Origin: a virus
Taxonomy: Duplodnaviria; Caudoviricetes
Direction: 5' to 3' (one strand)
IMG/VR virus record: IMGVR_UViG_3300022181_000084
Span: 1 to 24,854 of that record
DNA length: 24,854 nt
The notes beneath the pieces are model-generated. The model searched no databases. It saw only the letters and a list, made by a program, of their open reading frames with translations, and was not told the DNA's origin. A program made the position numbers and the translations under genes. Below are positions 1 through 13,585 of the stretch, in pieces. The number at the start of each line of letters is the position of its first letter. Position 1 is the stretch's first letter.

Positions 1-17
1 GTAAAGGTTGTGTAGCT

Positions 18-1019
18 ATGCTAGTTGATATCTATACTTTGAAATTAATAAGAGATTCTTTAGTGTTTGATATAACACCTTTATGCGAAGAATTAACCTG
101 GAAAGATAGTATTGATACCTTGGGAATGGAATTGGATTTTAGCATTGCTTATAATGACGCTAGATTCATTCCTAAGGTCAATATAGATTTAGGAGACCTA
201 TTAGTATTAAATAATAATGCAGTAGAGGTTTTTAGAGGGATTGTAGTAGATGAAACTATAGATGGAAGGTTTAAAAGGTCATATGTTGCTTTTGATTTTG
301 CGTTTTATTTAAATAAGTCTAAAACTATAATTCAATTTAACAAAATGAAAGCTGATGAAGCGATTAAAAAGCTCTGTAATCAATTTAATATACCTATAGG
401 TACTATTTGTCCTATACCTACTCTAATTACTAAAATATATAAAGATAAGACGATAGCAGAACTAATGGAAGATATATTAGAGCAAGCTACAAAAGAACTT
501 GGTTACAAATTTAGAAAAGAGATGAGAGCTGGTAAATTTTATATTGATAAGTACACCGATCTTGTTGTGAAAGGCCTTTTTAAACCAGCAAGTAATATAC
601 AGGCTTTTGATGTTACTAAGGCAATAGAAAAAGTGAATAGAAAAAGAAATATATCAGATATGAAGAATAGTATATTGATTGTATCTGGAGATGAAAAGAG
701 TGCAAGAATAGAAGCTAAGGCAGAGGATTCTTCATCAATAGCAAAATATGGACTTATGCAAGATGTTGAGAGTGTAGATAGTAAAGACATAGCACAAGCT
801 AGAAACATAGCTAAAAACAAGCTAGAAGAGTTGAATAAAATCGCAGAGGATACAAGTATAGAGGTACTTGGTTCTGACGAAGTAAGAGCTGGAAGGATAC
901 TAGAAATAACAGAGCCAGTTACTGGTCTAAGCGGTAGGTATTTAGTTAAAGATTGTACACACACATATAAAGACATGGTCCACAAAATGAGCATGAATAT
1001 TGAGAAGGTGAGTAATTAA
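18..1019 (+). CDS. XkdQ/YqbQ-like tail/baseplate hub protein
   Basis: 333 aa; motifs VFRGIV, AFDFAFYLNKS, SIAKYGLMQ, GRYLVKDCTHTY; first gene of an XkdQ-R-S-T-U type run. Confidence 0.8.
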   Translation: MLVDIYTLKLIRDSLVFDITPLCEELTWKDSIDTLGMELDFSIAYNDARFIPKVNIDLGDLLVLNNNAVEVFRGIVVDETIDGRFKRSYVAFDFAFYLNKSKTIIQFNKMKADEAIKKLCNQFNIPIGTICPIPTLITKIYKDKTIAELMEDILEQATKELGYKFRKEMRAGKFYIDKYTDLVVKGLFKPASNIQAFDVTKAIEKVNRKRNISDMKNSILIVSGDEKSARIEAKAEDSSSIAKYGLMQDVESVDSKDIAQARNIAKNKLEELNKIAEDTSIEVLGSDEVRAGRILEITEPVTGLSGRYLVKDCTHTYKDMVHKMSMNIEKVSN

Positions 1020-1279
1020 TGAGCTGGGATATAGAACTTGCTAAAAGATTTAAAAATACATCATCTGCTTCAAGCTCATCAGATATCTTGGTTGGAAAAG
1101 TAATATCTAAGAGTCCAGTGAGCATAGCTATTTACGATGGTCTTGCAAAACTTGAAAATCAGCATTTATATTTAGCAGATGGTTCAGATGCTTTTAATTA
1201 TAATCAAGGAGAAGAAGTTTTACTTGCTACTCCTGATGGCCAAGTATTTTTTATTATTAATAAGGCAAAAAAACTATAA
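1019..1279 (+). CDS. XkdR/DUF2577-like baseplate spike protein
   Basis: 86 aa; GKVISKSP and GEEVLL..DGQVFFII motifs; position after the XkdQ-like gene, TAATG coupling. Confidence 0.7.
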   Translation: MSWDIELAKRFKNTSSASSSSDILVGKVISKSPVSIAIYDGLAKLENQHLYLADGSDAFNYNQGEEVLLATPDGQVFFIINKAKKL

Positions 1280-1293
1280 AGGAGGTTTAAAGC

Positions 1294-1740
1294 TTGAGCA
1301 TATTTCCAATTGCAGATATAAGTCTACTCCAAAATGAAGAAATACAAGAAGAAACAGAACAGAGTTTAGGTAAAGTTTATAAGTTTGATTTTGACAATAA
1401 TAAATATTTATTGAAAGATGGAAAACTTATTGAAACTACAAAGACAGAAGCAATACAGCAATTTGTAAGATGGACTTTAAAAACTATTATAAAAAAATAC
1501 AAAATATATGATGAAGATTATGGTATGGATTATTCTTTTGTAGGTTATAGAAATCTACCTTTTGGATTCATAAATTCAGAATTAAAAAGGCAAATAGAAG
1601 AGCAATTAACCACACATCCTTTAATAAATTCTATTTTGAATTATAAGAGTTATAAAGAGTCAACAAGTCTTTATGTAGAGTTTGTTTTAGTTACAACAGA
1701 AAATGAAAACTTAGTTTTCAATGAAAGCGTGGTGATTTAA
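1294..1740 (+). CDS. XkdS/DUF2634-like baseplate protein
   Basis: 148 aa; FDFD...LKDGK, EAIQQFV, YKIYDEDYG, SELKRQIEEQL motifs; RBS AAAGGAGG upstream. Confidence 0.8.
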   Translation: MSIFPIADISLLQNEEIQEETEQSLGKVYKFDFDNNKYLLKDGKLIETTKTEAIQQFVRWTLKTIIKKYKIYDEDYGMDYSFVGYRNLPFGFINSELKRQIEEQLTTHPLINSILNYKSYKESTSLYVEFVLVTTENENLVFNESVVI

Positions 1741-2840
1741 TGAGCTTTGAATATAAAACAGTTGAAGAACTAAGAACAGATATTTTGAATAATATTTCTG
1801 ATGAACATGAAAAAAGCAAAGGGAATTTGACTTATGATATTCCTGCAGCTACAGCTATTGTATTAAATAAAACCTATGACAAACTTAAGGAGCTTACTAA
1901 TAAAGTTGATGTAGATAATCTTCAAGGTGAGGATTTAACTAAATATGTAAAGCAAAGAAGAGGGCTAAAAAGAAAACTAGCTACAAAAGCTAAAGTTGTA
2001 TTAACTATTACTGGTGAAGCTAGTATAAATATAGGAGATTTGTTTGAAACACATGCAGGTACTCAGTTTTCATCTACTCAAGCAATTTCTATAGTAGGTA
2101 GTGGAACTATATTAGCTGAAGCTGTAATTCCAGGAGAATCTGGAAATGTAGGAGCAAATACTATAACTTTAATGCCAGTTACAATACAAGGTGTAGTATC
2201 TATTACAAATATCGCACCTAGCTATGATGGATTTGCAGAGGAATCAGATGCAGCTCTTAGGGAAAGATACTATGAAGCAATTCAAAGACCTGCTACTAGT
2301 GGTAATGTATTTCATTATATGGCTTGGGCAAAAGAAGTTCCTGGAACTGGAGATGCTAAAGTTATATCTTTATGGGATGGAGATAACACTGTGAAGGTAG
2401 TTGTTATTAATGCTAATAAAGAACCTGCTTCAAGCGATATTGTGAATGCAGTCCAGGAATATATAGATCCTAAAGGAACTTTCATAGCAGAAGAAAACAG
2501 ATGGACATTATGGGGTACTGGTTCAGGGCAAGCGCCAATAGGAGCTTACTGTACAGTCATAAGTGCTGCAGGTTTCGTGCTTAATGTGTCTGTAGACATT
2601 ATGGAAGAAGAAGGATATCTTGCGGAAGAAGTAAAAACAAATATTGAAGAAAATATTACTGCATATCTGCAAGCTATAGCATTTAAGCAAAATTATATAA
2701 GCTATGCAATAGTAGGAAGTATCATAGTGCAAACTGACGGAGTAGCAGATTATCAAAACTTAAAGCTTAATAATACTACTGCTAATGTAAATATTGGTAA
2801 TGAGCAAGTCGCTATATTAGGCTCTGTTGCTTTAACTTAG
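1740..2840 (+). CDS. Baseplate J/gp47-like protein (XkdT)
   Basis: 366 aa; GESGNVGANTI, ESDAALRERY, SGNVFHYMAWAKEVPG, WDGDNTVKVV motifs. Confidence 0.9.
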   Translation: MSFEYKTVEELRTDILNNISDEHEKSKGNLTYDIPAATAIVLNKTYDKLKELTNKVDVDNLQGEDLTKYVKQRRGLKRKLATKAKVVLTITGEASINIGDLFETHAGTQFSSTQAISIVGSGTILAEAVIPGESGNVGANTITLMPVTIQGVVSITNIAPSYDGFAEESDAALRERYYEAIQRPATSGNVFHYMAWAKEVPGTGDAKVISLWDGDNTVKVVVINANKEPASSDIVNAVQEYIDPKGTFIAEENRWTLWGTGSGQAPIGAYCTVISAAGFVLNVSVDIMEEEGYLAEEVKTNIEENITAYLQAIAFKQNYISYAIVGSIIVQTDGVADYQNLKLNNTTANVNIGNEQVAILGSVALT

Positions 2841-2850
2841 GGGGTCTGAT

Positions 2851-3399
2851 ATGGAAAATAAAATTATAGAATTAATGCATAAGTTAGTAAGAAAAGACCC
2901 TTATGTTATAGACCTTACTAACTCTATAGACTTATCTATTGATGAAATAGAGCTAGTTTTAGAGGATATTGAAAAGCAATTCTGGTTTGATACTATGACC
3001 TGGGGTGCTGATATATTAGCTAAGCAGTTAGATATCAAGATTCCTGCTGGTACATCGTTAGAAGATAAGAGAAGTATCTTAGAAGCTAGATGGAAAAATA
3101 GTGGTAAATCAGATATATATCTACTTCAAACGATAGCAGACAGCTGGAAAAATGGAGAAATAGAAGTAGGATTTGTAAATGGTATAATACAGATAAAATT
3201 TATAGGAGAGTATGGAGCTCCAAGTGATGTTGATAGTCTTAAAAAAGAAATATACCTTTCTAAACCCGCTCATCTAGGGGTTATTTATTTGTTCAAATAT
3301 CTGCTTATAAAAGACATTCATGAGGTTTTAACATTAGAGCAAATGGAGTCATTAACATTAGATAAATTTGCTTCAGGAGGTGAGCCTATTGGCCAGTAA
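2851..3399 (+). CDS. XkdU/YmfQ (DUF2313)-like baseplate protein
   Basis: 182 aa; QFWFDTMTWG, SLEDKRS, KPAHL motifs; follows baseplate J. Confidence 0.8.
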   Translation: MENKIIELMHKLVRKDPYVIDLTNSIDLSIDEIELVLEDIEKQFWFDTMTWGADILAKQLDIKIPAGTSLEDKRSILEARWKNSGKSDIYLLQTIADSWKNGEIEVGFVNGIIQIKFIGEYGAPSDVDSLKKEIYLSKPAHLGVIYLFKYLLIKDIHEVLTLEQMESLTLDKFASGGEPIGQ

Positions 3400-5407
3400 T
3401 ACAACTAATTTAAATTTATACAAAAAAGACCCTATAGAAGATAAGGACCAGACCTTTAATATCAAAACTATGATGAATGATAACTGGGATAAAATTGACC
3501 AATTTTCATATGATATAAAAGAACTGAAAGCAGATAGAACAATGATTGAGAACAGTTATTTTTTTGACCTAGAAGCTTATTACGGAAATACAAAGTTAAT
3601 TGATGATTTTCAGGATATGAGTAGGTGGACAGCTACGGGAGGTACATTAGCAACAGATATATCCAACTACAAGTTAGGTAAACAAAGTTTGAGATTAACA
3701 CAAACTATCTCGGTCGCAAGTATCGTGGGCATGTCTTTAAATAATCTTAACCTGAATTTAACAGCTCTTAATAACAGTGAATTGAGCTCAGAATCTGATT
3801 ATATTGCTACAGCTTTTTATATTTCAGATATTACTAAAATAGATTTTACTGGCGGTCAGGGTATTTGGATATTATTTGACCAAACCACACCATCAGCGGG
3901 GGTTGATACAAAATACTGCAAGATTGGAGTATCAGGCTTAACAACGGGTTGGAACTACTTAAAAATAAAGAAGTCCGAGTTTTTGACAAACGTAAATGGA
4001 AATTGGACAGGTATAAAATCAGTACATCTTAGATGGTTCTCTACAGCTAACGCTCAAAACGCTTATGTATCCTTCCAGTTACTTCAATTGGTAAAGAAAG
4101 ACCCTTTAGAGGATAAACCTAACCCTTTTCAGAAGTTCGGACAAAGAGAATTAAATCATCATTTTGGTGAGTGGTTTATAGGCTACGAGTTTGATAATTT
4201 AGTAGCTAAAGAATTATCAGGGTCTATAGCTTCTATAAGGTCACTTAGCTCAATTAATAAGTACAAAGATTGCTATGCTGAATTTATAACTACAAAAACG
4301 GGTAATGACTGCATTATAGGCGGACTCTATGGAACATCAGGTGACTACATTAGCCTAAAAGTTGAAGGTAGTTTATTTCTTGTAGGTATAAGGGTAGCTA
4401 ACGTAGATACCTTACACACTTTTACAGTTAGCGGTACAGATTTTACTGTAAATCTAAACCGTAAGGATAATAACATCGAAGTTATTGTAAATGGTGGACC
4501 TTTACTTACAACTACATTCGATTACCTAGAAGAGGTTAATCTAGCTATAGGGAGTAATAACCCTGAAGTTAGCTACATTAAATCAGCTACAATTACAGAG
4601 ATAGCACATTCACATCATGCGGATATAGCTGAGAGATTATCAGAAAAAGGAAAGCTTGACTTACTGAGAGTGCCTAAATATATATCAAATAGCAATAACA
4701 CTATCATGCAACTAGGGCATGTAGTTGATGGTTTTAGCATATACGCAAAAATAATGCGACCTAGTTTAAATGATGGTAGTCAGCTATCTTATGCTGAGTT
4801 ATTCCTTGGCAAATATAAAACTGGAGCTACCGTTCAAGGAAAGTTGCAATACCTTATGGACCTAACTTTAGGTACATATAAACTACGTTTCAAATTAACA
4901 GACAAAGGTATTTTATACGCTCTATCACCTCAATACAATTATTCAACGTTAACAATGATAGAAGCTAGAGGATTTACAGAAGATATTAAAACCGTACCTG
5001 CTATAGAGGGTAATGTTATATGGGATAGTGAGGGAAACACAAGAAGCGTATGCGTTAATGAAGCGCCAACAGAAACAGTAATTACGTCAGGCTTTGCTGC
5101 TGGGTGGAGTGGCGAGATTAGGCTAGGTAAAACGCAAGAAGGGATTAAGTATATACACATAGTATCGCTGGCTAAAACTAGCGATATTTCTACAGGTGGT
5201 GATATACCATATACTATTCCAATAGGACATAGACCTATCAAGACAGTATCTGAAAATTTAGTCGGTTATAGTAGCAGCGGACCTTTTAAAGCTGGTAGCT
5301 CAATTCAAGTTAGGGTACAATCTGACGGAGTATTAGCACTTACAAGCACTGGGAGCGTTACAGCAGACGTTAGATCTATTGTAGGTGCTTTACTAACATT
5401 TATATAG
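3389..5407 (+). CDS. Tail fibre / receptor-binding protein (~672 aa)
   Basis: Start revised to TTG at 3389 behind AGGAGGTGA. N-terminal NTTNLNLYK...MNDNWDKID baseplate-anchor-type motif; beta-rich middle; C-terminal TIPIGHRP motif common in fibre tips. Confidence 0.75.
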   Translation: MASNTTNLNLYKKDPIEDKDQTFNIKTMMNDNWDKIDQFSYDIKELKADRTMIENSYFFDLEAYYGNTKLIDDFQDMSRWTATGGTLATDISNYKLGKQSLRLTQTISVASIVGMSLNNLNLNLTALNNSELSSESDYIATAFYISDITKIDFTGGQGIWILFDQTTPSAGVDTKYCKIGVSGLTTGWNYLKIKKSEFLTNVNGNWTGIKSVHLRWFSTANAQNAYVSFQLLQLVKKDPLEDKPNPFQKFGQRELNHHFGEWFIGYEFDNLVAKELSGSIASIRSLSSINKYKDCYAEFITTKTGNDCIIGGLYGTSGDYISLKVEGSLFLVGIRVANVDTLHTFTVSGTDFTVNLNRKDNNIEVIVNGGPLLTTTFDYLEEVNLAIGSNNPEVSYIKSATITEIAHSHHADIAERLSEKGKLDLLRVPKYISNSNNTIMQLGHVVDGFSIYAKIMRPSLNDGSQLSYAELFLGKYKTGATVQGKLQYLMDLTLGTYKLRFKLTDKGILYALSPQYNYSTLTMIEARGFTEDIKTVPAIEGNVIWDSEGNTRSVCVNEAPTETVITSGFAAGWSGEIRLGKTQEGIKYIHIVSLAKTSDISTGGDIPYTIPIGHRPIKTVSENLVGYSSSGPFKAGSSIQVRVQSDGVLALTSTGSVTADVRSIVGALLTFI

Positions 5408-5422
5408 AAAGGAGTTGAAATT

Positions 5423-5725
5423 ATGGTGGTACAAAAGCAGGAAGAGGTTTTAATAAATGCTCAGGGCGAGTTTCTACAGATACTTTATGAGTATCCTGAA
5501 ACATTAGAAGAGGGTCAAAGTATTATAGTACCTCTAAGTAATTATTATGAAGTATTAAATGAAGAAAGATATGATATGTCAGTATGGGATTTTGCTCAAG
5601 AAAAGTGGACAGGAAAAGGCGAGCAAAGACCGATTGTTGTACCTGAATTAAGTGAAATTGAAAAACTTAAAATATCACAAGCAGAGCAATTTGAAACTAT
5701 ATTAAATTTAATAGGAGGAATGTAG
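5423..5725 (+). CDS. Probable tail fibre assembly/chaperone (XkdW-like position)
   Basis: 100 aa; WDF..EKW motif and C-terminal helix SEIEKLK..QAEQFE; RBS AAAGGAG. Confidence 0.55.
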   Translation: MVVQKQEEVLINAQGEFLQILYEYPETLEEGQSIIVPLSNYYEVLNEERYDMSVWDFAQEKWTGKGEQRPIVVPELSEIEKLKISQAEQFETILNLIGGM

Positions 5726-5727
5726 AC

Positions 5728-5901
5728 ATGGATACATTATATGCAGATTTATGCGAGATGGGACAAAGAGCAACAAGAGAAAATACTTTAGGAATTAAAT
5801 TAGTTCCTGATGTACTTGAATTAAGACAGAAAACAGAAAAAGAGCTTGAAAGAAGAGGGACATTAGTTGGCTTGCTTGAAAAATGGAATTCTGCACAGTA
5901 A
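5728..5901 (+). CDS. 57-aa small phage protein, CD1375/XkdX-like (not in ORF track)
   Basis: MDTLYADLCEMGQRATRENTLGIKLVPDVLELRQKTEKELERRGTLVGLLEKWNSAQ; RBS AGGAGG upstream; LYADL..G...VP..LR...E.EL pattern and typical position. Confidence 0.7.
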   Translation: MDTLYADLCEMGQRATRENTLGIKLVPDVLELRQKTEKELERRGTLVGLLEKWNSAQ

Positions 5902-5912
5902 TTTTAAATTAT

Positions 5913-5930
5913 AGCCTTATGGCTTTTTTT
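5913..5930 (+). terminator. Weak rho-independent terminator between tail and lysis genes
   Basis: AGCC-TTAT-GGCT followed by T tract; only a 4-bp stem. Confidence 0.4.
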
Positions 5931-5959
5931 ATTTCTAACTTAAAGGATGGTGAGGTTAT

Positions 5960-6253
5960 TTGACAGTAGAAGTTGCAATGTTAATTTCATTTGTTTCTGT
6001 TGCTTGGGGAATATATCAAGGGGTTTTAAATCTTAAAAGGAACCAGATAAATGACACTAAGAATGATACTGCACAACTTACAACAATAATCGTGAAACTG
6101 GAAAATATAGGTGATGATATTTCTGAAATTAAGAATGACATGGGAAATGTAAAACATGATATGAAGGATATGAATGCTCGTTTAATTAAGGCCGAACAAC
6201 AATTGAAAGTCTTGAATAAAACTATATTTAAGAATGGTGATTCAAATGAGTAG
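5960..6253 (+). CDS. Lysis-module membrane protein (one N-terminal TM plus coiled coil; XhlA/holin-accessory-like)
   Basis: 97 aa; hydrophobic VAMLISFVSVAWGIY followed by heptad-like repeats; precedes the endolysin. Confidence 0.6.
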   Translation: MTVEVAMLISFVSVAWGIYQGVLNLKRNQINDTKNDTAQLTTIIVKLENIGDDISEIKNDMGNVKHDMKDMNARLIKAEQQLKVLNKTIFKNGDSNE

Positions 6254-6620
6254 AATAAGCAAAACGGTTGCTGAACTTGAAGCAGAACTAAAAGCTGCAA
6301 AAGAAAAAGAGAAAACTAAAGTTAGAGAACGAAGATATGTTGAAGCTAGTAAGCTAACTCTCTTCGTTATCGTAGGCATCGTCATAGGTGCTTTTTTTAT
6401 TGCTTCTTATTTGGCAATAATAACTGGAGATACCACTTCGGCTACAAACAATCTAGAAATTCTCACAAATTGGGCACAAATAGTCCTCGTGGCTATAATT
6501 GCTAAGTCAGGCTTTGAAAATCTCTCTAAAGGCAAAATACGAAGTCAAATTATTAAGAACAAGATAGAAAATAATGAAGAGTTGATTGAGGGTTCAGAAG
6601 ATTTCAGAAATGGGGTTTAA
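6246..6620 (+). CDS. Two-TM membrane protein, putative holin
   Basis: Start revised to ATG 6246 (MSRISK); hydrophobic segments LTLFVIVGIVIGAFFIASYLAII and WAQIVLVAIIA; directly upstream of the endolysin. Confidence 0.55.
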   Translation: MSRISKTVAELEAELKAAKEKEKTKVRERRYVEASKLTLFVIVGIVIGAFFIASYLAIITGDTTSATNNLEILTNWAQIVLVAIIAKSGFENLSKGKIRSQIIKNKIENNEELIEGSEDFRNGV

Positions 6621-6621
6621 T

Positions 6622-7686
6622 ATGCAAGATTTCATAGATAAAGTACTGCCTGGAGCTAGAAAAGGATATTTAGAACATAATATTTTACCTTCACTAACGA
6701 TTGCTCAAGCAATTTTAGAAAGTAATTCAGGTAAATCTCAGCTAGCTAAAAAAGGAAATAATCTGTTTGGGATTAAGGCAGATTCTAGATGGACTGGTAA
6801 AAAGATAAATTTTCCCACTAAGGAATTTATTAAAGGAAAAGAGATAACAGTTAATGCTTACTTTAGAGCGTATGATTCATTTTCTGATTCAGTTGAGGAC
6901 CATACAAAGTTTTTACTTACTAAGCGTTATGAAAAAGTAAGAAGCTCAAAGGATTATGAAGAAGCATGTACCGAGATATGGAAAGCTGGATATGCTACGG
7001 ACCCAAAATATCCAAATAAGTTAATTAGCATCATAAAGCAATATGAACTATATAAATATGACGAAGAAGGTGAGGGTTTGATAAACAGAAATACGATTCT
7101 TGATGCAGCTCTTATGCTGCAATCTAAAAAAGTAAAGTATAAACTAGGAGCTAAAGCTTTACCACCTAAAATTCCAACACATCTTGATTGCTCTGGCTTC
7201 GTGAGGTACTGCTATAAAGTAGCAGGGGTAAACATACCCGATGGTACTTATTTTCAATGGGATGCAAGCAATTCAATAAATGCAAAAGATTTAAAGATAG
7301 GAGACCTAGGTTTTAAGTTTGATCCTACAATGTCAACTGGAACTAATCACATTGGAATATATGCAGGTTCAGGAAAGTGGATTCATTGCAATGGTACAAG
7401 AAATGGAATCACTTTAGAAAAAACTAATATTTTCCCATATGCACGAAGATTAAAAGGTGTAAGTTTTACTAATATAAATATAAAAAAACAGGAGGATGAT
7501 GATATGCCAAGAATAGAAGTTAGTGACAAAGAAAAAGGATATGCTACAGCTGCAATAAAAAGACTCGCTGAGCTTAATGTTATTTCTAATCCGGATGTGC
7601 ATATAAAGAATTTAGAAACTGACCCAAGCTCATGGGCGCAGTGGGTAGTAAATGCAAAGCTGGCCGAGAAATTGGAGGGGAAATAA
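6622..7686 (+). CDS. Endolysin: GH73 glucosaminidase + NlpC/P60 peptidase + short C-terminal domain
   Basis: Start revised to ATG 6622. IAQAILES, NNLFGIKA, FRAYDS and GYATDPKY (GH73); LDCSGFV, GDLGF and HIGIY (NlpC/P60 Cys-His). Confidence 0.9.
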   Translation: MQDFIDKVLPGARKGYLEHNILPSLTIAQAILESNSGKSQLAKKGNNLFGIKADSRWTGKKINFPTKEFIKGKEITVNAYFRAYDSFSDSVEDHTKFLLTKRYEKVRSSKDYEEACTEIWKAGYATDPKYPNKLISIIKQYELYKYDEEGEGLINRNTILDAALMLQSKKVKYKLGAKALPPKIPTHLDCSGFVRYCYKVAGVNIPDGTYFQWDASNSINAKDLKIGDLGFKFDPTMSTGTNHIGIYAGSGKWIHCNGTRNGITLEKTNIFPYARRLKGVSFTNINIKKQEDDDMPRIEVSDKEKGYATAAIKRLAELNVISNPDVHIKNLETDPSSWAQWVVNAKLAEKLEGK

Positions 7687-7687
7687 T

Positions 7688-8017
7688 ATGAACGATTTTC
7701 AATTCAATATAATAATAGCGCTAATCCCAGTACTTGGGTTAATATTGACAACAATAGTTGGAAATGTTGCTAAGAAGTATGGCAAGAATTTAGATTTAAA
7801 AGCTGCTTCATTTTGGACTAAAATAGCTGTTTCTATATTTGAAGACAAATATGGAAAAGGAAAAGGAGATGAGAAGAAACAAGATGTAATTAAGTTTTTG
7901 AAAGAACAAGGAATTAATCTTAGTGAGAATCAAATAGATTTACTAATAGAAGCTGTGGTAAAAGAGCTTACTATTGCTGGAGTAATTAATAGAGATAATA
8001 ATAAAATGCTAAATTAA
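7688..8017 (+). CDS. Phage holin, LL-H family-like
   Basis: Start revised to ATG 7688 behind GGAGGGG; N-terminal TM then GKGDEKK...GINLSENQIDLLIEAVVKEL. Confidence 0.8.
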   Translation: MNDFQFNIIIALIPVLGLILTTIVGNVAKKYGKNLDLKAASFWTKIAVSIFEDKYGKGKGDEKKQDVIKFLKEQGINLSENQIDLLIEAVVKELTIAGVINRDNNKMLN

Positions 8018-8055
8018 TACTAAGATAAAATAAGTATTTAAATTAAAAATAAACG

Positions 8056-8088
8056 TATAGCTGGTTAAGTTGCCAGCTATATTTTTTT
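8056..8088 (+). terminator. Rho-independent terminator ending the lysis operon
   Basis: TATAGCTGG-ttaagttg-CCAGCTATA followed by T7. Confidence 0.85.
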
Positions 8089-8115
8089 GACATTAAAAAG
8101 AACATATGTTCTAAT
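8087..8115 (+). promoter_or_regulatory. SigA promoter overlapped by a LexA (SOS/Cheo) box
   Basis: TTGACA (8087-8092), 17 nt, TCTAAT (8110-8115) preceded by TGn; perfect palindrome AGAACATATGTTCT at 8099-8112 matches the Firmicute GAAC-N4-GTTC consensus. Confidence 0.8.
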
Positions 8116-8135
8116 GTGTGAAGGAGTGATTGAAT

Positions 8136-8885
8136 ATGATGAAATCGCCGATTTCAAGAATGGGAGGAAAATCAAAACTAAGAAGTAAGATTATAGAATT
8201 ATTTCCAGAGCATAAGTGTTATGTAGAAGTATTCTTTGGGGCTGGATGGGTTTATTTTGGGAAAGATAAATCTAAATGTGAAGTAATCAATGATAAAGAT
8301 AAGGAGCTTATTAATTTATTTAAAATAATTAAGCATCATAATGAAGAGTTTGAACGATTGCTGCAGTATGAAATTAGTTCAAGAGATATCTTCTTCGACT
8401 ATAGAAATGATAGTTATGATAAGCTTACTGATATTCAAAGAGCTGTCAGGTTTATGTATATAATATCTCAAAGCTTTGCTTCTAAAGGAGATACTTATGG
8501 ATATGCAACGTCTAAAGGTCCATAAAATAAGATTTTCAACACTTCAAACCTTAAAGAAGTTAGAGACAGACTGTCTAATACATTTGTCGAGAATCTTGAT
8601 TTTGAAGACTTAATTAAAAGATATGATAGAGAGCATACTTTGTTTTTCTGTGACCCACCTTATTTAGAAACAGCAGGATATCACTGTGAATTTAAAAAAG
8701 ATGATCACTATCGATTATATGAAGTCCTAAGTGGCGCAAAGGGCAAATTCATATTAACAATAAATGACCATCCTCTTATAAGAGAATTATATCATAGTTA
8801 TGATATTGAAGTTGTTGAAACCATGTATTCTGTAAGTAAAAATATTAATAAAAAAGTAAACGAACTAATAATCAAAAACTTCTAA
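8136..8885 (+). pseudogene. Dam/D12-class N6-adenine DNA methyltransferase interrupted by a single TAA (8523-8525)
   Basis: ORFs 8130..8525 and 8640..8885 share a frame and the sequence between them is open (NKIFNTSNLKEVRDRLSNTFVENLDFEDLIKRYD); motifs MGGKSKL, EVFFGAGWV, ND and DPPY. Confidence 0.85.
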
Positions 8886-8940
8886 AATAAAACCAACCTT
8901 TTTTTTAATTCTTCCATATATATAAATAGGAGGTGAAAAT

Positions 8941-9096
8941 ATGGAAGAATTTAAAAAGGTAATCGAAGAGTTAATCATTACGAGCTTAGAAGAAGTAATG
9001 CTGCAAACTGGATTAGAAAAATATGAAGTATTAAAATTAGCAAAAGAATGTGGGTATGTAATAGATTATCAGGGATATTTGTCTAAAAAAATGTAA
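8941..9096 (+). CDS. 51-aa hypothetical protein (not in ORF track)
   Basis: MEEFKKVIEELIITSLEEVMLQTGLEKYEVLKLAKECGYVIDYQGYLSKKM; strong RBS AGGAGGTG at 8928-8935. Confidence 0.65.
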   Translation: MEEFKKVIEELIITSLEEVMLQTGLEKYEVLKLAKECGYVIDYQGYLSKKM

Positions 9097-9307
9097 ATAT
9101 AGAAACAATAATATTATTTTGGAATAAGAGCCTATTGAAAATGGCAATATATAAAAAATACACAATATGTAAAAATATATATTTACAAGGTGTAATCTAG
9201 TTGTAATATATTATAATTAAGTATGACTCTTTTTAATTTGCTAAATATATTAATGTTAAAAATTAAATGATTATATTAATAGTAAGAAAGAAAAGGAGAG
9301 GTTATTT

Positions 9308-9613
9308 ATGACGGATTCTGTAAAAGCATTGGTAGCTGTAAATAATTTTATGAGGTCAAAAGATCTAAGTTTTGGAGTTTCCTATAGACTTAATGTACAT
9401 GTAGAAAATATTATTGATGAGGATATTAATGTCCAAATTTCTAGAAAAAATAATAATTTTTATAACGTAAATATTTTTTGGGAAGATATAATAATTAATT
9501 ACAAGAACTTAGGTTTGCATGGTTATTATTCAACTATGTACTGCAAATTTTATTTTGAAAATGAAAGTTTAATAATTGTAGATAGCAATGGTAAAAAAAT
9601 TATTCTTAAATAA
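9308..9613 (+). CDS. Hypothetical protein (prophage accessory)
   Basis: 101-aa ORF with RBS AAAGGAGAGG; no family recognised. Confidence 0.6.
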   Translation: MTDSVKALVAVNNFMRSKDLSFGVSYRLNVHVENIIDEDINVQISRKNNNFYNVNIFWEDIIINYKNLGLHGYYSTMYCKFYFENESLIIVDSNGKKIILK

Positions 9614-9697
9614 AATAATAGAAAATATTAATATTTTATTTGCTTAAAAAGAATAATATAAATGATAAAAAAGTGAATTATCGAGGAGCTTATAAAA

Positions 9698-10459
9698 GTG
9701 AGAGATACTATAGTTAGGCCTAGTTATATTCCTGATAAATACGACGGCTATGCATTTATAAAATTTTTTAAAGAAGAAAATTTTTTAAATGATTTTATTT
9801 CTGGGAAGTTGTATATGGGATCTAAAGAAAAATTTGCTATGATGGAATCAATAGGGAGAAGTGATGAATTAGAAAATAAATTTATTATTTCAAAACCTAC
9901 AATGAATATGAAACCAGCATATTCTCTTCAAAAAATGAATGATAAAAATATTATTGTTTTTGATGAAGTACCTAAAAATGGATTTGATGATGGACCATTA
10001 TTGATGATTCATGATAGAAATGCTGAAAGAACGAAAATATTTTGCTTATATACTATTTGGTTTAATACCGAATCTGGAGAAATATACGAAATAAGTGAAG
10101 AAATGGAATCTAATTTCGGAGATTATTGTGCGTTTATCTTTAATCCAGAGGAGTTTTTAAAAATAGTAGAGAATGGCTTAGAGCAAAATAAATGTAACAA
10201 AATTGATTTTGGTTTTGTGGATTATTATAATTTAGAAGATTCAACATTTCATATATGGAATACATTTAAAAAACCATATTTAAATTATCATTATCAAAAC
10301 GAATTTAGGATTTCAATTCTAACAGATAATGATGATGATCACATCCTATATAATTTAGAAAGTGATATAACAAATATTTGTACAAGGACTAAGTATAAGG
10401 ACATTATTGATGGAAAAATATTTATTAGAGATGGATATATATATATGATACAAGAATAG
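9698..10459 (+). CDS. Hypothetical protein, DUF2971-like motif pattern
   Basis: 253 aa, GTG start behind GAGGAG; IKFF...G.LYM, RSDELE, IFCLY, FGDYC, VDYY and FKK..Y.YQNEFRI. Confidence 0.6.
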   Translation: MRDTIVRPSYIPDKYDGYAFIKFFKEENFLNDFISGKLYMGSKEKFAMMESIGRSDELENKFIISKPTMNMKPAYSLQKMNDKNIIVFDEVPKNGFDDGPLLMIHDRNAERTKIFCLYTIWFNTESGEIYEISEEMESNFGDYCAFIFNPEEFLKIVENGLEQNKCNKIDFGFVDYYNLEDSTFHIWNTFKKPYLNYHYQNEFRISILTDNDDDHILYNLESDITNICTRTKYKDIIDGKIFIRDGYIYMIQE

Positions 10460-10548
10460 TTTTAGGCAAGTTTAAAGTAAATAAGAAATTATACTTAAGA
10501 ATAATGGATGTTATCAAATATAAATAATAATATAAATAGATATTTAAT

Positions 10549-10583
10549 AAAAAAGAGCCTAAATCAGCAAACGGCTCTTTTTT
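10549..10583. terminator. Bidirectional rho-independent terminator
   Basis: AAAAAAGAGCC...GGCTCTTTTTT between convergent genes. Confidence 0.85.
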
Positions 10584-10587
10584 AAAC

Positions 10588-10716
10588 TTATTTCTTATTT
10601 GGAATCACAAAATCTCCATTTACTGGGATTCTGAAAGCTTTTTTCCCATATGTTCTTGCATATATCTTAGTACCATCTTTTAATGTTATTGATGCTCTAA
10701 AAATGTATTTCTTCAT
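10588..10716 (-). CDS. 42-aa basic small protein downstream of the XRE/ImmA pair
   Basis: Start revised to ATG 10716 behind AAAGGAGGTG; MKKYIFRASITLKDGTKIYARTYGKKAFRIPVNGDFVIPNKK; terminator immediately after the stop. Confidence 0.75.
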   Translation of the reverse strand: MKKYIFRASITLKDGTKIYARTYGKKAFRIPVNGDFVIPNKK

Positions 10717-10748
10717 ATGGACACCTCCTTTCTTGACAAAAAAATTAT

Positions 10749-10777
10749 TTGCCAAAAAAGAAAATATGTAATACAAT
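10749..10777 (+). promoter_or_regulatory. Putative SigA promoter firing antisense to the immA/small-ORF intergenic region
   Basis: TTGCCA (10749-10754), 17 nt, TACAAT (10772-10777); no plus-strand ORF follows. Confidence 0.45.
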
Positions 10778-10884
10778 AAATTTGAATGTAAGTATTATTG
10801 TATACAGCTGATTTATTTAATTTTTTGGCACCTAGCTTAGCGTCAACTGAACTAGGTAATTTTATTTTAAATAGTTATAACTAT

Positions 10885-11391
10885 TTAAAAACCACAATAT
10901 TTTTTTTGTATCTCGGCAACTTGTCGAGATACTTTGCATTTTTTGGATATTTCGTTAGGTTGCATTTTTTGTACTAATTTGTGTGGTACTAAAAGTTCTG
11001 CTGCGAAAGTATTAGCTTGCCATTCTGGATCTTCGTAAGATTTAATTTGCCCTCTAGCAAAAGAAATAGATGAAGAGGGATGCAAAAAATAGTGTCCTAT
11101 TTCATGAGCTATAGTAAATCTATCTCTATAATTATCATTACAAGCCCCTTCGTAAACTGAGTTTCTTATTACTATCTTCTTTTCTTCTGGAAATATTCGA
11201 GCATAACAATTTAATTCATAGTCTTCAACAATTTCCATATAAAATCCTGGATCTCCGGCCAACTCACTTAAACGTTCCAACAATTCTACGACTGGAAACT
11301 CATAGGAATTTGATAAATCCAAAGCATCTCTTATTAAATCAGTAATTTTTCGTATATCACTTCTGGATCTAGGTTTACTTTTATAATTCAT
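10885..11391 (-). CDS. ImmA/IrrE family (DUF955) Zn metallopeptidase
   Basis: RDRFTIAHEIGH (HExxH) and EWQANTFAAELLVP; start revised to ATG 11391 behind AAGGAG. Confidence 0.9.
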   Translation of the reverse strand: MNYKSKPRSRSDIRKITDLIRDALDLSNSYEFPVVELLERLSELAGDPGFYMEIVEDYELNCYARIFPEEKKIVIRNSVYEGACNDNYRDRFTIAHEIGHYFLHPSSSISFARGQIKSYEDPEWQANTFAAELLVPHKLVQKMQPNEISKKCKVSRQVAEIQKKYCGF

Positions 11392-11396
11392 GTGAA

Positions 11397-11750
11397 TCAA
11401 CTCCTTTTGAAGATTTTTCTAAGATATTCTTTATTCTTATCATCAAGTGAATCAAAATTTCTAGCAAAAGATAGAATTAAATCTTTATCAGAATCATCTT
11501 TTTGATTTAAATCTATATTTATTGAATCAAGGCTATTTTCATATGATCTTTCTAATTCTAAATATTGTTCGTGAGAAAGATTATACTCTGTCTTCAATAT
11601 ATCAAGCCATTTTACAGGAATAGGTCGTTTACCTATTTCTGTAGCAGATAGATAAGATGAACTAATTCCCAATTTATCCGCCATATCTTTAAGTCGTTGA
11701 CCAGTTTCAATTCTTAGTTTTCTTGTGAATATGCCAAATTCATTTAACAT
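11397..11750 (-). CDS. XRE-family HTH regulator
   Basis: Start revised to ATG 11750 behind GGAGG; FG..TRKLRI..GQRLKDMADKLGISSSYLSATEIGKR. Confidence 0.9.
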   Translation of the reverse strand: MLNEFGIFTRKLRIETGQRLKDMADKLGISSSYLSATEIGKRPIPVKWLDILKTEYNLSHEQYLELERSYENSLDSINIDLNQKDDSDKDLILSFARNFDSLDDKNKEYLRKIFKRS

Positions 11751-11811
11751 GGCAATTCCTCCCTTATTCTTTTCAAAAGTAATATTCATGTATTAATAGT
11801 TTCCTAAAAAC

Positions 11812-11864
11812 ATAATATCACATATTTGTGTAAAAAATCAACAAAATTTGTAGAAAAATTTCTA
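11812..11864 (-). promoter_or_regulatory. Putative promoter and operator palindromes for the xre-immA operon
   Basis: Minus strand TTGATT, 18 nt, TATTAT with TGn extension; palindromes CACATATTTGTG (11819-11830), ACAAAATTTGT (11841-11851), TAGAAAAATTTCTA (11851-11864). Confidence 0.4.
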
Positions 11865-11955
11865 AAAAAAGTAGTTCTATTTCATCGGATTAATTTTATG
11901 AGTCTCACTTTTTATTTGCATTTGATATAATTGTTAATAAAAAGGAGGGATAGGA

Positions 11956-12594
11956 TTGAAAAATATTACATTATATTTGATAGGAACAGCAACAGGATTT
12001 GTAATTTTCGCTTTGATACTAGCATTTAATGATTATAATTTATTTGGAGTTGGATTATCAGATGCGTGGATATCTTTCTTAGGAGCAATAGCGGGAGGGA
12101 TTATTACAATAATAGGAGTATATTGTACACTTAAACAGAACAGAGAATTAATGGAAGAATCCCATAATAAACAAATGAAGTTAATGTTAACACAAATAAG
12201 GACTCAATTTTGGATGGAAAAATTTTCAGATGCAATTGCCTATGCAGAAAACATTAATAAAGATATCACAAATTTTGTAAAAGAATTTAATGAAATGGAT
12301 TTAAGTTCTAGATCTGAGAAAACATTTAATATCAATTATCTTAAAAATAAGGTAGATGAACTAGATAAACATTCTTATAGTATTTATCCTATGTTACTTG
12401 TTGATGAAAACTTAAAAAACACATTTGATAATTTTAAATACTATATTTTGGATTTAAATCTTAAAGTAGAATCCAATTTCAACTTTGTACATTATAACAA
12501 AATTAATATGGATGAGATCACTTATGATATAAAGTTGTATAGTAATTATTTTGGAAATCTAATGCACTATGTAATTAGTAAAGAGGAATTATAA
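11956..12594 (+). CDS. Membrane protein with two N-terminal TM helices and a helical soluble domain
   Basis: 212 aa, TTG start behind AAAGGAGG; WISFLGAIAGGIITIIGVYCT-type TM motif. Confidence 0.7.
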   Translation: MKNITLYLIGTATGFVIFALILAFNDYNLFGVGLSDAWISFLGAIAGGIITIIGVYCTLKQNRELMEESHNKQMKLMLTQIRTQFWMEKFSDAIAYAENINKDITNFVKEFNEMDLSSRSEKTFNINYLKNKVDELDKHSYSIYPMLLVDENLKNTFDNFKYYILDLNLKVESNFNFVHYNKINMDEITYDIKLYSNYFGNLMHYVISKEEL

Positions 12595-12618
12595 TTTATA
12601 ATTAATTTTGATATATAT

Positions 12619-12668
12619 TTTCATCCTGGACCTCCTGTAGGATAGGGAAATGGAGGCCCAGAATGAAA
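12619..12668 (-). terminator. 17-bp hairpin between convergent genes (terminator or stabilising stem)
   Basis: TTTCATCCTGGACCTCC (12619-12635) / GGAGGCCCAGAATGAAA (12652-12668); the two plus-strand mismatches become G-U pairs on the minus strand. Confidence 0.55.
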
Positions 12669-12674
12669 TTTTAC

Positions 12675-13172
12675 CTACATTATAATAGATATATATTGAT
12701 CTACTGATTCTTGTATTCTTTTTGTTCTTGGAAATCCACCATTAAGATATCTAGCAATACTATCCCTGCCAACTCCTATTTCTTTAGCACAAGCTTCATA
12801 ACTATGTCCGTGATACTTAATAGCTTTATATAGTTTTTCAGCAAAGGTTCCCTCGGGTAAATTATAAAAATCTCCAACAAAAGAAATTTTTTCATTAGTA
12901 GCGTAAGCTATTTTTTTTATGGTATCAATACGAGGAGACCTTCTTACTTCTGCTTTTGTTATTGCAACCTCTGATAAATTACATAATTTAGCAAAATCTT
13001 TAACAGAAAGATTGAGTTTCTTCCTTATAATGTATATATTGTTAGTAGGAACATTATTTTCATTACTATAATAGAAGGGATTATCTGGAGTGTTAATCTC
13101 ACGGATGCCCTTGCGGAAACTTTTTGAATCAATCAAAGGCATGCAGCTGTAATGATAATAAGATAAAAACAT
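12675..13172 (-). CDS. Double XRE-HTH protein whose reading frame crosses the prophage/comM junction
   Basis: Two HTH units (IRKKLNLSVKDFAKLCNLSEVAITKAE; KAIKYHGHSYEACAKEIGVGRDSIARYLNG); codons 1-22 lie in comM antisense, so the true start is uncertain. Confidence 0.7.
   Translation of the reverse strand: MFLSYYHYSCMPLIDSKSFRKGIREINTPDNPFYYSNENNVPTNNIYIIRKKLNLSVKDFAKLCNLSEVAITKAEVRRSPRIDTIKKIAYATNEKISFVGDFYNLPEGTFAEKLYKAIKYHGHSYEACAKEIGVGRDSIARYLNGGFPRTKRIQESVDQYISIIM
13095..13120. other. Predicted attR junction (crossover about 13104-13108)
   Basis: CACGGA|TGCCCTTGCGGA: the right side encodes CPCG of ComM, the left side does not encode the expected AAMNP. Confidence 0.75.
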
Positions 13173-13585
13173 ATCTATCTAGAGCCTCAACTCCTATTTT
13201 GGATAGAATGGATATTTTTGTCGAAACTTCTCCTATTCCCTATGAGGATTTAGTAGTGGAAATTGATGAGGAGGACTCAGCTACAATTAAGAAAAGGGTA
13301 GAAAAAGCAGTTGAAATTCAAAAAAATAGATTTAAATCCTTGAAAATTAATTACAATAGTCAGATGAATTCTAGGCAAATAACAAAATATTGCATACTAT
13401 CAAAGGAAGCAAAAAGCTTGCTTGAGGCAGCTTTTAAGCAAAGTAATCTGACAGCAAGAAGCTATCATAGGATTTTAAAAGTATCTCGTACTATTGCAGA
13501 TTTGGATTCAAGTGAATTAATTAATATAAATCATATAGCAGAAGCTCTGAATTTCAGGAAAACATTTCATAAGTATTGGGATTAA
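13106..13585 (+). pseudogene. comM: 3' fragment of ComM/YifB Mg-chelatase-like AAA+ ATPase, split by the prophage
   Basis: CPCGNF...CSC...YLSRASTPILDRMDIFVE, LTARSYHRILKVSRTIADL, HIAEALNFR; directly upstream of dprA. Confidence 0.9.

Follow-up and report, generated by a model that had tools for sequence, protein, structure and literature searches.

A serine integrase gene spanning its own attachment site in comM prophages: a likely two-form switch that loses and regains a double helix-turn-helix tail

Introduction

The window analysed here is a stretch of 24,854 nucleotides from a tailed phage (Duplodnaviria; Caudoviricetes; positions 1 to 24,854 of the IMG/VR record IMGVR_UViG_3300022181_000084), in which one end of a prophage abuts the 3' part of the host gene comM. 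Across this junction runs a minus-strand frame that encodes two XRE-type helix-turn-helix (HTH) domains and lacks a start of its own on the phage side; the phage-side part is called the tail below. Comparison with related elements supports the reading of this frame as the 3' portion of a large serine integrase gene spanning attP, the attachment site of the phage, and the fusion in the window itself is inferred only from close relatives, because the left end of the prophage, with attL and the integrase, lies outside the record. Judged from the sequences, one integrase exists in two natural protein forms, set by the recombination state of the element. The best explanation, which we hold to be very likely, is a split-gene switch: integration into comM removes the double-XRE tail and excision would restore it, the long form probably carrying out integration and the short form excision.

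Rebuilt and Natural Forms of the Integrase

Two close proviruses, G001 and G002, have tails that are 88% and 79% identical to that of the window (92% and 86% in nucleotides over the tail region). At their other end, a large serine recombinase gene runs into attL and takes its last codons from the antisense strand of comM, giving proteins of 546 and 541 amino acids. When the two ends were rejoined at their common GGACAT/CAT core, under the rule that the rebuilt attB must restore the NPCPCG motif of comM, open reading frames (ORFs) of 681 and 677 amino acids were obtained, in which the integrase continues into both HTH domains and terminates at the stop codon of the tail. Chance two-base joins further inside G001 and G002 also passed the filter used, with other lengths and away from the common core. 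Choosing the att core by the longest shared word was rejected, as it gave wrong words and out-of-frame joins.

The same two forms occur among natural proteins. Within the best 120 homologues, 23 are 664–722 amino acids long and carry HTH_3 in every case (23/23), and 97 are 520–599 amino acids long without an HTH; these short proteins end a median of 8 residues past the same alignment column (within 40 residues in 97/97), and 60 of them have C-terminal ends of the comM-antisense type. P0006 (675 amino acids) and its relatives combine Resolvase, Recombinase and Zn-ribbon domains with a coiled coil and an N-terminal catalytic Ser (YxRVS), the make-up of a large serine integrase. In P0006 the core runs straight into the tail (residues 537–675, 79% identical to that of the window), and the match to the tail begins at the first phage-side residue of the window. 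Two short proteins, P0219 and P0223 (539 and 544 amino acids), are 100% identical to residues 1–536 of P0006 and then continue with comM-antisense residues, and in P0225 the host-side residues of the window are joined to a P0006-type tail. Viral contigs L084 and L085 hold natural attP sites that match one rebuilt site over both arms.

Long forms are also found in isolated phages. Phage Harrison encodes a protein of 695 amino acids with the domain order Resolvase-Recombinase-Zn-HTH-HTH, the junction of which bears a symmetric attP-type site, and phage Paisley matches this long integrase over the same length. In the accessible text of the phage paper (PMC5056774; here and below, the cited papers were accessible in part) the long protein is termed only a serine recombinase, and the word “attP” is absent from the main text. 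In Harrison (L218:2125-4552), the long integrase begins 1 base past the end of an XRE gene; it is probably co-expressed with that gene because of this spacing, and its regulation may differ from that of the clade with LexA boxes described below.

An earlier note on this DNA had proposed that the opposite end of the prophage might supply a large serine recombinase continuing in frame into the IREIN sequence of the tail, and that integration and excision would break and build an integrase-HTH fusion. Both proposals are supported by G001 and G002 (546/541 amino acids integrated, 681/677 rejoined), and the first also by the natural fusions and the isolated phages. Its alternative, an N-terminus supplied by a separate leader with its own ribosome-binding site (RBS), found no support. 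As a side observation, in two close relatives, P0002 and P0004, a nearly identical first HTH is followed by a different second one, in which both the recognition helix and the C-terminus have been replaced; this suggests a modular exchange.

The Prophage End and the Tail in the Window

The prophage right arm occupies positions 1..13105 of the window and holds phage tail and baseplate, lysis and cargo genes; the tail and lysis labels come from sequence reading and likeness to G001 and G002. The 3' part of comM/yifB follows on the plus strand at 13106..13585, with the B' arm of attR at its start and profile matches to PF01078 (159–206), PF13335 and TIGR00368 (348–499). Beyond the junction lie 3' comM, dprA, topA, codY and other host genes, topA and codY being labelled from sequence reading. 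The crossover dinucleotide is TG at 13106..13107 (plus strand), within the first Cys codon of the comM NPCPCG motif; in the integrase frame it reads CA and spans codon positions 3|1. The phage arm P' of attR (13085..13105) mirrors the P arm that is found where the integrase gene of relatives ends. Empty attB sites were found in contigs of runs X8, X13 and X15, which diverge from the window at 13105 into the AAMNP-coding 5' half of comM, and the lysogen junction itself recurs in contigs of runs X3 and X14. The host of this prophage is probably Acetoanaerobium, because the named members of the neighbouring cluster come from that genus and one of their tails is 96% identical to that of the window.

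The minus-strand ORF at 13172-12675 encodes 165 amino acids without a stop across the prophage/comM junction, in agreement with the earlier description of two intact XRE-type domains in a frame open through the junction. The 3' part of the split integrase gene is at 12675..13106 (minus strand), comprising 143 codons and a stop, with a linker and tandem XRE HTH domains and without its own start. The linker (13041..13106, minus strand) has 22 codons, the first 7 of which form the P' arm of attP, and is predicted to be flexible. HTH 1 is at approximately 12891..13040 (minus strand; Pfam HTH_3 at E 7e-12, ORF residues 46–94; helices at 555–602 in the P0006 model), and HTH 2 at approximately 12681..12845 (minus strand; HTH_31 at ORF residues 121–146; helices at 620–674 in the P0006 model). 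The tail thus has both the HTH_3 profile and the HTH fold of an XRE domain.

A codon scan agrees with the earlier claim that the 143 phage-side codons (13106-12678) contain no in-frame ATG, GTG or TTG other than the final Met, at 12680. On the host side, the ATG codons at 13172 and 13142 were correctly placed, as was the GAGG 12 nt ahead of 13172; the TTG sits at 13136, and 13133, where it had been put, is an ATT. These 22 antisense-comM codons (13107..13172, minus strand) are the false N-terminus given by gene callers and are probably not the real start of the tail. Between the stop codon of the tail and a converging cargo gene (11956-12594) lies a strong hairpin at 12614..12673, directly past the stop (22-nt arms, 82% complementary; -28.1 kcal/mol, z -5.1). 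It may form the 3' end of the mRNA for the long integrase or serve as its terminator, although a canonical U-tract was not called.

Occurrence and Selection across the Bacillota

In total, 74 genome loci were found, and 50 integrase-bearing genomes were searched for the tail, which is present in 39 of them, mostly once (three copies occur in genome G065 and two in G070). The comM motif lies on both sides in 38 of 41 integrase-tail pairs (not in L030 and L046, which are at contig ends, nor in L031), and, with the host motif alone fixing the crossover, the rebuilt attP is in frame in 35 of these 38; in L035 it fails, with a broken integrase and stops in the tail. In the survey of homologues for start-less frames abutting att sites, as suggested earlier, the layout recurs across the Bacillota, which argues that it is not due to chance. 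The pairs are related rather than independent, with cores 41–96% identical. Two in-frame pairs with doubtful crossovers (L018 and L047) were excluded from the selection, arm, identity and start analyses, leaving 33. The other two failures among the 38, L034 and L061, were rejected as comM elements, the motif call being spurious and the loci not at comM.

The linker occurs in 11 different lengths of 23–42 amino acids, always with the frame kept. Outside the clade of the window, the ratio of nonsynonymous to synonymous substitution rates (dN/dS) of the tail is 0.11–0.18 in 8 pairs (0.04–0.07 for the cores where measurable), and these values indicate that the tails are under purifying selection. 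Identity of the tail also tracks identity of the core (rho 0.72 over 528 non-independent pairs), and in L035/L202 integrase and tail have decayed together. Ten of the 11 genomes without a tail match were looked at, G030 being left out. Six have an unbroken comM-length frame (509–543 amino acids), one has no comM match, L014 is decayed, L054 has a truncated tail, and L043 carries an integrase-comM fusion. In this last case (L043:1501-3630, a metagenome-assembled genome of the Veillonellaceae), the integrase is in frame with 3' comM, producing a 709-amino-acid recombinase-Mg-chelatase fusion.

In an even draw of 401 Bacillota genomes, at least 8 match the tail strongly (E below 1e-37); the count is a lower bound, as only 9 candidates were scored in each genome. 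The 15 new matches from this draw include six strong and one partial match of the tail type, of which four have a called comM motif (three in phase, one shifted) and three do not; the eight weak matches (70–76 bits) belong to different multi-HTH proteins, most of which have a Met of their own. The latter (L238-L245) are stand-alone multi-HTH regulators in several Bacillota and, from their similarity to the tail, could be its source family. A profile search returned mostly generic tandem-HTH pieces, and an Atlas search recombinase clusters only. Among 21 viral records, many of them fragments or perhaps end-trimmed, only single-HTH matches to the tail were seen, in 5, and tblastn of the tail alone against the phage collection gave no match.

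Structure, Attachment Sites and Regulation

AlphaFold models of two natural long forms give a normal core and a tail of two HTH bundles with a predicted local distance difference test score (pLDDT) of about 81–97; the linker of P0006 (residues 528–552) falls below 50. The core matches the structures of phiC31 and Bxb1 integrases and of entries that we take to be the SPbeta and LI integrases. The closest solved relatives of the tail are repressors and controllers, namely SinR, P22 C2, 434 and C proteins. The segment connecting HTH1 and HTH2 is strongly conserved. The recognition helix of HTH1 is variable, unlike the att arms, and this speaks against recognition of the att core by the tail. The tail thus looks like a single-chain pseudo-dimer that binds DNA without reading the att core. 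In many linkers an alternating hydrophobic stretch follows the att arm; the clade of the window lacks it.

The att sites are short, with a 2-bp crossover and a symmetric attP, as fits a large serine integrase. Arm symmetry is 0.76–1.0 at distances 4–6 and mostly 0.7–0.94 at 11–21, and drops beyond 23. The crossover, at codon positions 3|1, falls about 8 residues past the last conserved zinc-ribbon strand (18 in the clade of the window). The centre of attP is CA in 25 of 33 elements and TG in 8, a swap that needs at least 3 changes on the tree and reverses the orientation of the element in comM with the codon phase kept. Several elements (L034/L210, L208/L209, L232, L236 and L237) are at non-comM sites (secondary attB) and have kept the P' arm and the tail.

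A LexA-type box lies 15–18 nt ahead of the integrase start in both close proviruses. Scored against a LexA-type consensus, 19 of 57 loci have such a box no more than 80 nt from where the integrase starts, as against 1.8% of shuffles. Provirus G001 has, in addition, a separate repressor/Cro-like pair and an ImmA-like gene about 5 kb from int (labels from sequence reading).

The Probable Two-form Switch and Its Rivals

An incoming phage encodes the long form only, so that by exclusion the long form would carry out integration; a prophage encodes the short form only, which would then carry out excision, with or without a recombination directionality factor (RDF). In other words, each form must perform its own direction because each recombination state encodes only one form. 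In the clade of the window, where a LexA-type box precedes the integrase, SOS induction would likely make the short form first from the LexA-boxed promoter, probably acting with an RDF, and after excision the long form would be made from the same promoter. As to the tail itself, our tentative reading, to which we give almost an even chance, is an XRE pseudo-dimer on a flexible tether that would bind phage DNA and raise or steer recombination between attP and attB. In that case, losing the tail would be a latch and would leave behind a quieter enzyme ready for excision, as reported for Mx8. A stricter version, in which a widespread integrase family sets its own direction by rewriting its gene, with the double-XRE tail licensing integration, the tail-less prophage enzyme needing no separate RDF for excision and recombination itself acting as the switch, appears fairly unlikely.

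Several observations weigh against this explanation. The attL and integrase of the window were not seen in its record, and contigs of 8 runs contain no attP joint, although assembled contigs only were searched and these are silent on excision. Tail dN/dS in the clade of the window is 0.34, 0.42 and 0.83 (small counts), and two close relatives have a different HTH2. In Selenomonas noxia (L054/L221), the linker is in frame and the tail stops after about 30 residues. The AlphaFold models leave the tail unplaced relative to the integrase (predicted template modelling scores 0.41 and 0.37; linker pLDDT mostly below 55), the top residue of the HTH1 recognition helix has a share of 0.21–0.47 at most positions, against conserved att arms, and no operator for the tail was found by inspection or repeat search. 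Finally, the tail is missing from a culture-supernatant record of the clade, the Acetoanaerobium phage ANDSL2_ph1, which has attL, about 560 bp of comM and the integrase in its short form. In this record (L217:4601-5164), attL and the approximately 560 bp of the comM 5' half are joined to the region after the endolysin, and the right end is absent. Because the tail is present in the chromosome of the host, this record resembles the product of an imprecise excision, or a cut-out of a prophage or from an assembly.

With the same anatomy, the tail could instead be a transcription regulator, the unintegrated long form repressing or activating the int or lysis-lysogeny promoter and integration switching it off. 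The kinship of the tail with repressors and controllers points this way, as do the flexible linker and the diverse HTH1 recognition helix together with an HTH2 that differs among close relatives, as in specificity-bearing repressors. On the contrary, no common palindrome upstream of int was noticed besides the LexA-type box (no formal motif discovery), and regulation would leave unexplained why the tail is fused to the integrase across cores 41–96% identical; we regard this role as possible but on the unlikely side. The tail might also be a built-in directionality factor that covers the RDF pocket and blocks excision, or blocks re-integration, so that no separate RDF is needed. The swap point does lie just past the strand of which the RDF pocket of SPbeta integrase is made, a hydrophobic linker stretch is modelled as a strand (residues 541–546, pLDDT about 52), and engineered C-terminal RDF fusions switch direction, two larger fusions inhibiting activity, in the available text of PMC12286644. 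However, the hydrophobic stretch is absent in the clade of the window, the linker is of low confidence in both single-chain models, and a block on integration ill fits a long form that is the only form of the infecting phage, all of which make a directionality factor quite unlikely.

It is in our view very unlikely that the tail (also) acts on its own to regulate the prophage state, with translation beginning at an antisense-comM ATG or TTG or at a non-canonical codon. The 22 open host codons with ATG 13172 and the GAGG 12 nt upstream would allow it, public annotations call a gene of 149–165 amino acids, and on the minus strand 13224-13196 weakly resembles a promoter (13 such matches found versus 8.7 expected). 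Among relatives, however, the open host-side stretch ranges from 1 to 165 codons and closes within 8 in 12 of 33, no start position is conserved, four of 34 tails have no ATG, GTG or TTG before HTH1 yet are intact, and an SD-like (Shine-Dalgarno) start is seen in only 5 of 34 tails versus 40 of 57 integrases; an own start with RBS independent of att, the mark of a stand-alone XRE regulator, is thus not found. A neutral accident, in which a decaying HTH gene is in frame by chance, could draw on the higher tail dN/dS in the clade of the window and on the one element (L054) that has lost its tail; it is scarcely credible given 35 of 38 pairs in frame with 11 linker lengths, the low dN/dS outside that clade, the tracking of tail and core identity and the joint decay in L035/L202.

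Comparison with Known Systems

In mycobacteriophage BPs, attP reportedly lies inside the repressor gene and integration removes a degradation tag. The earlier note had cited this as a precedent for att-controlled gene products; integration-dependent immunity of the BPs type is not matched, as attP here lies in the integrase gene and the repressor pair of G001 is separate, and closer parallels are Mx8 IntP and the integrases of streptococcal integrative and conjugative elements (ICEs) that target rumA. As in these two systems, att is inside the integrase coding sequence and the forms differ only at the C-terminus, with an intact core.

The rumA-targeting ICEs also use a serine integrase with att inside its own gene, whose two forms differ in C-terminus and length, and a functional difference has been proposed (PMC4701971). 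They differ in that rumA and int swap their 3' parts and the frame changes as they do so, and the available text of that paper mentions no folded domain. The family described here consists of prophages that target comM, and its free form acquires a double-XRE domain that is conserved and under selection. In Mx8 (IntP/IntX) and Mx9, attP lies inside int and integration swaps a 112-amino-acid C-terminus for 13 amino acids (PMC4701971, PMC6070905, PMC4383910); the truncated Mx8 integrase is less active (PMC4701971), and the swap has been read as a lysogeny switch. The Mx8 enzyme is, however, a tyrosine recombinase with a different target, the lost piece is not named as XRE in the accessible texts, and the enzymes here have serine recombinase domains. 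The archaeal “suicidal” tyrosine integrases of SSV1, pTN3 and pT26-2 are likewise split by their own integration, leaving both pieces inactive (PMC8371274); there the catalytic part is cut off, whereas the short form here keeps Resolvase, Recombinase, Zn ribbon and coiled coil.

SPbeta SprA and the phiC31, Bxb1 and LI integrases share the core architecture, the symmetric attP of about 46 bp and the 2-bp crossover. In contrast to the enzymes described here, the accessible accounts give them one protein form, an att site outside the gene and a separate RDF that sets direction. Large serine integrases and their RDFs are also treated in PMC11795197, and the very end of the C-terminus of SPbeta integrase, which lines its RDF pocket, works as a toggle of directionality (10.1101/2025.01.03.631226).

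Targeting of comM/Mg-chelatase genes accounts for 12.4% of predicted site-specific integrases in PMC10083194, the main text of which contains neither “HTH” nor “helix-turn-helix” on a word search; its supplements may list such enzymes. In phage WO, the large serine recombinase sr1WO targets the same gene family, with HTH_XRE genes at the far prophage end and no fusion described in the available text (PMC9203015). In the literature searched, which consisted mostly of non-subscription texts without supplements, we met with no account of a double-XRE tail that is conserved and put back at attP. Thus, an att site inside an integrase gene and the targeting of comM are known, and the conserved double-XRE tail rejoined at attP appears to be the new part.

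Neighbouring Cargo Genes

A perfect LexA-type palindrome, GAACATATGTTC, lies at 8100-8111 ahead of a D12-class adenine methyltransferase gene (window 8100-8885), which is interrupted by one in-frame stop at 8523-8525. Further along, an XRE gene and an IrrE/ImmA-like peptidase gene form a pair on the minus strand (10885-11789) with CapH/CapP-like matches in PADLOC. Neither Pfam nor PADLOC gave a match for the flanking cargo genes at 9308-9613, 9698-10459 and 11956-12594, which are candidates for regulated defence genes.

Significance

The control of directionality is the central question for serine integrases, and the comM family offers a natural pair of enzymes, one for each recombination state. 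The gene comM is among the commonest targets of large serine recombinases in the accessible text of PMC10083194. Annotation pipelines wrongly take the tail for a small regulator and give it a false start in antisense comM. Integrases that are mined for genome engineering from integrated prophages would be truncated forms, and their best integration activity may therefore have been missed. For the host, comM (beside dprA), which we take to be a competence gene, is interrupted by the phage, and excision would therefore restore it.
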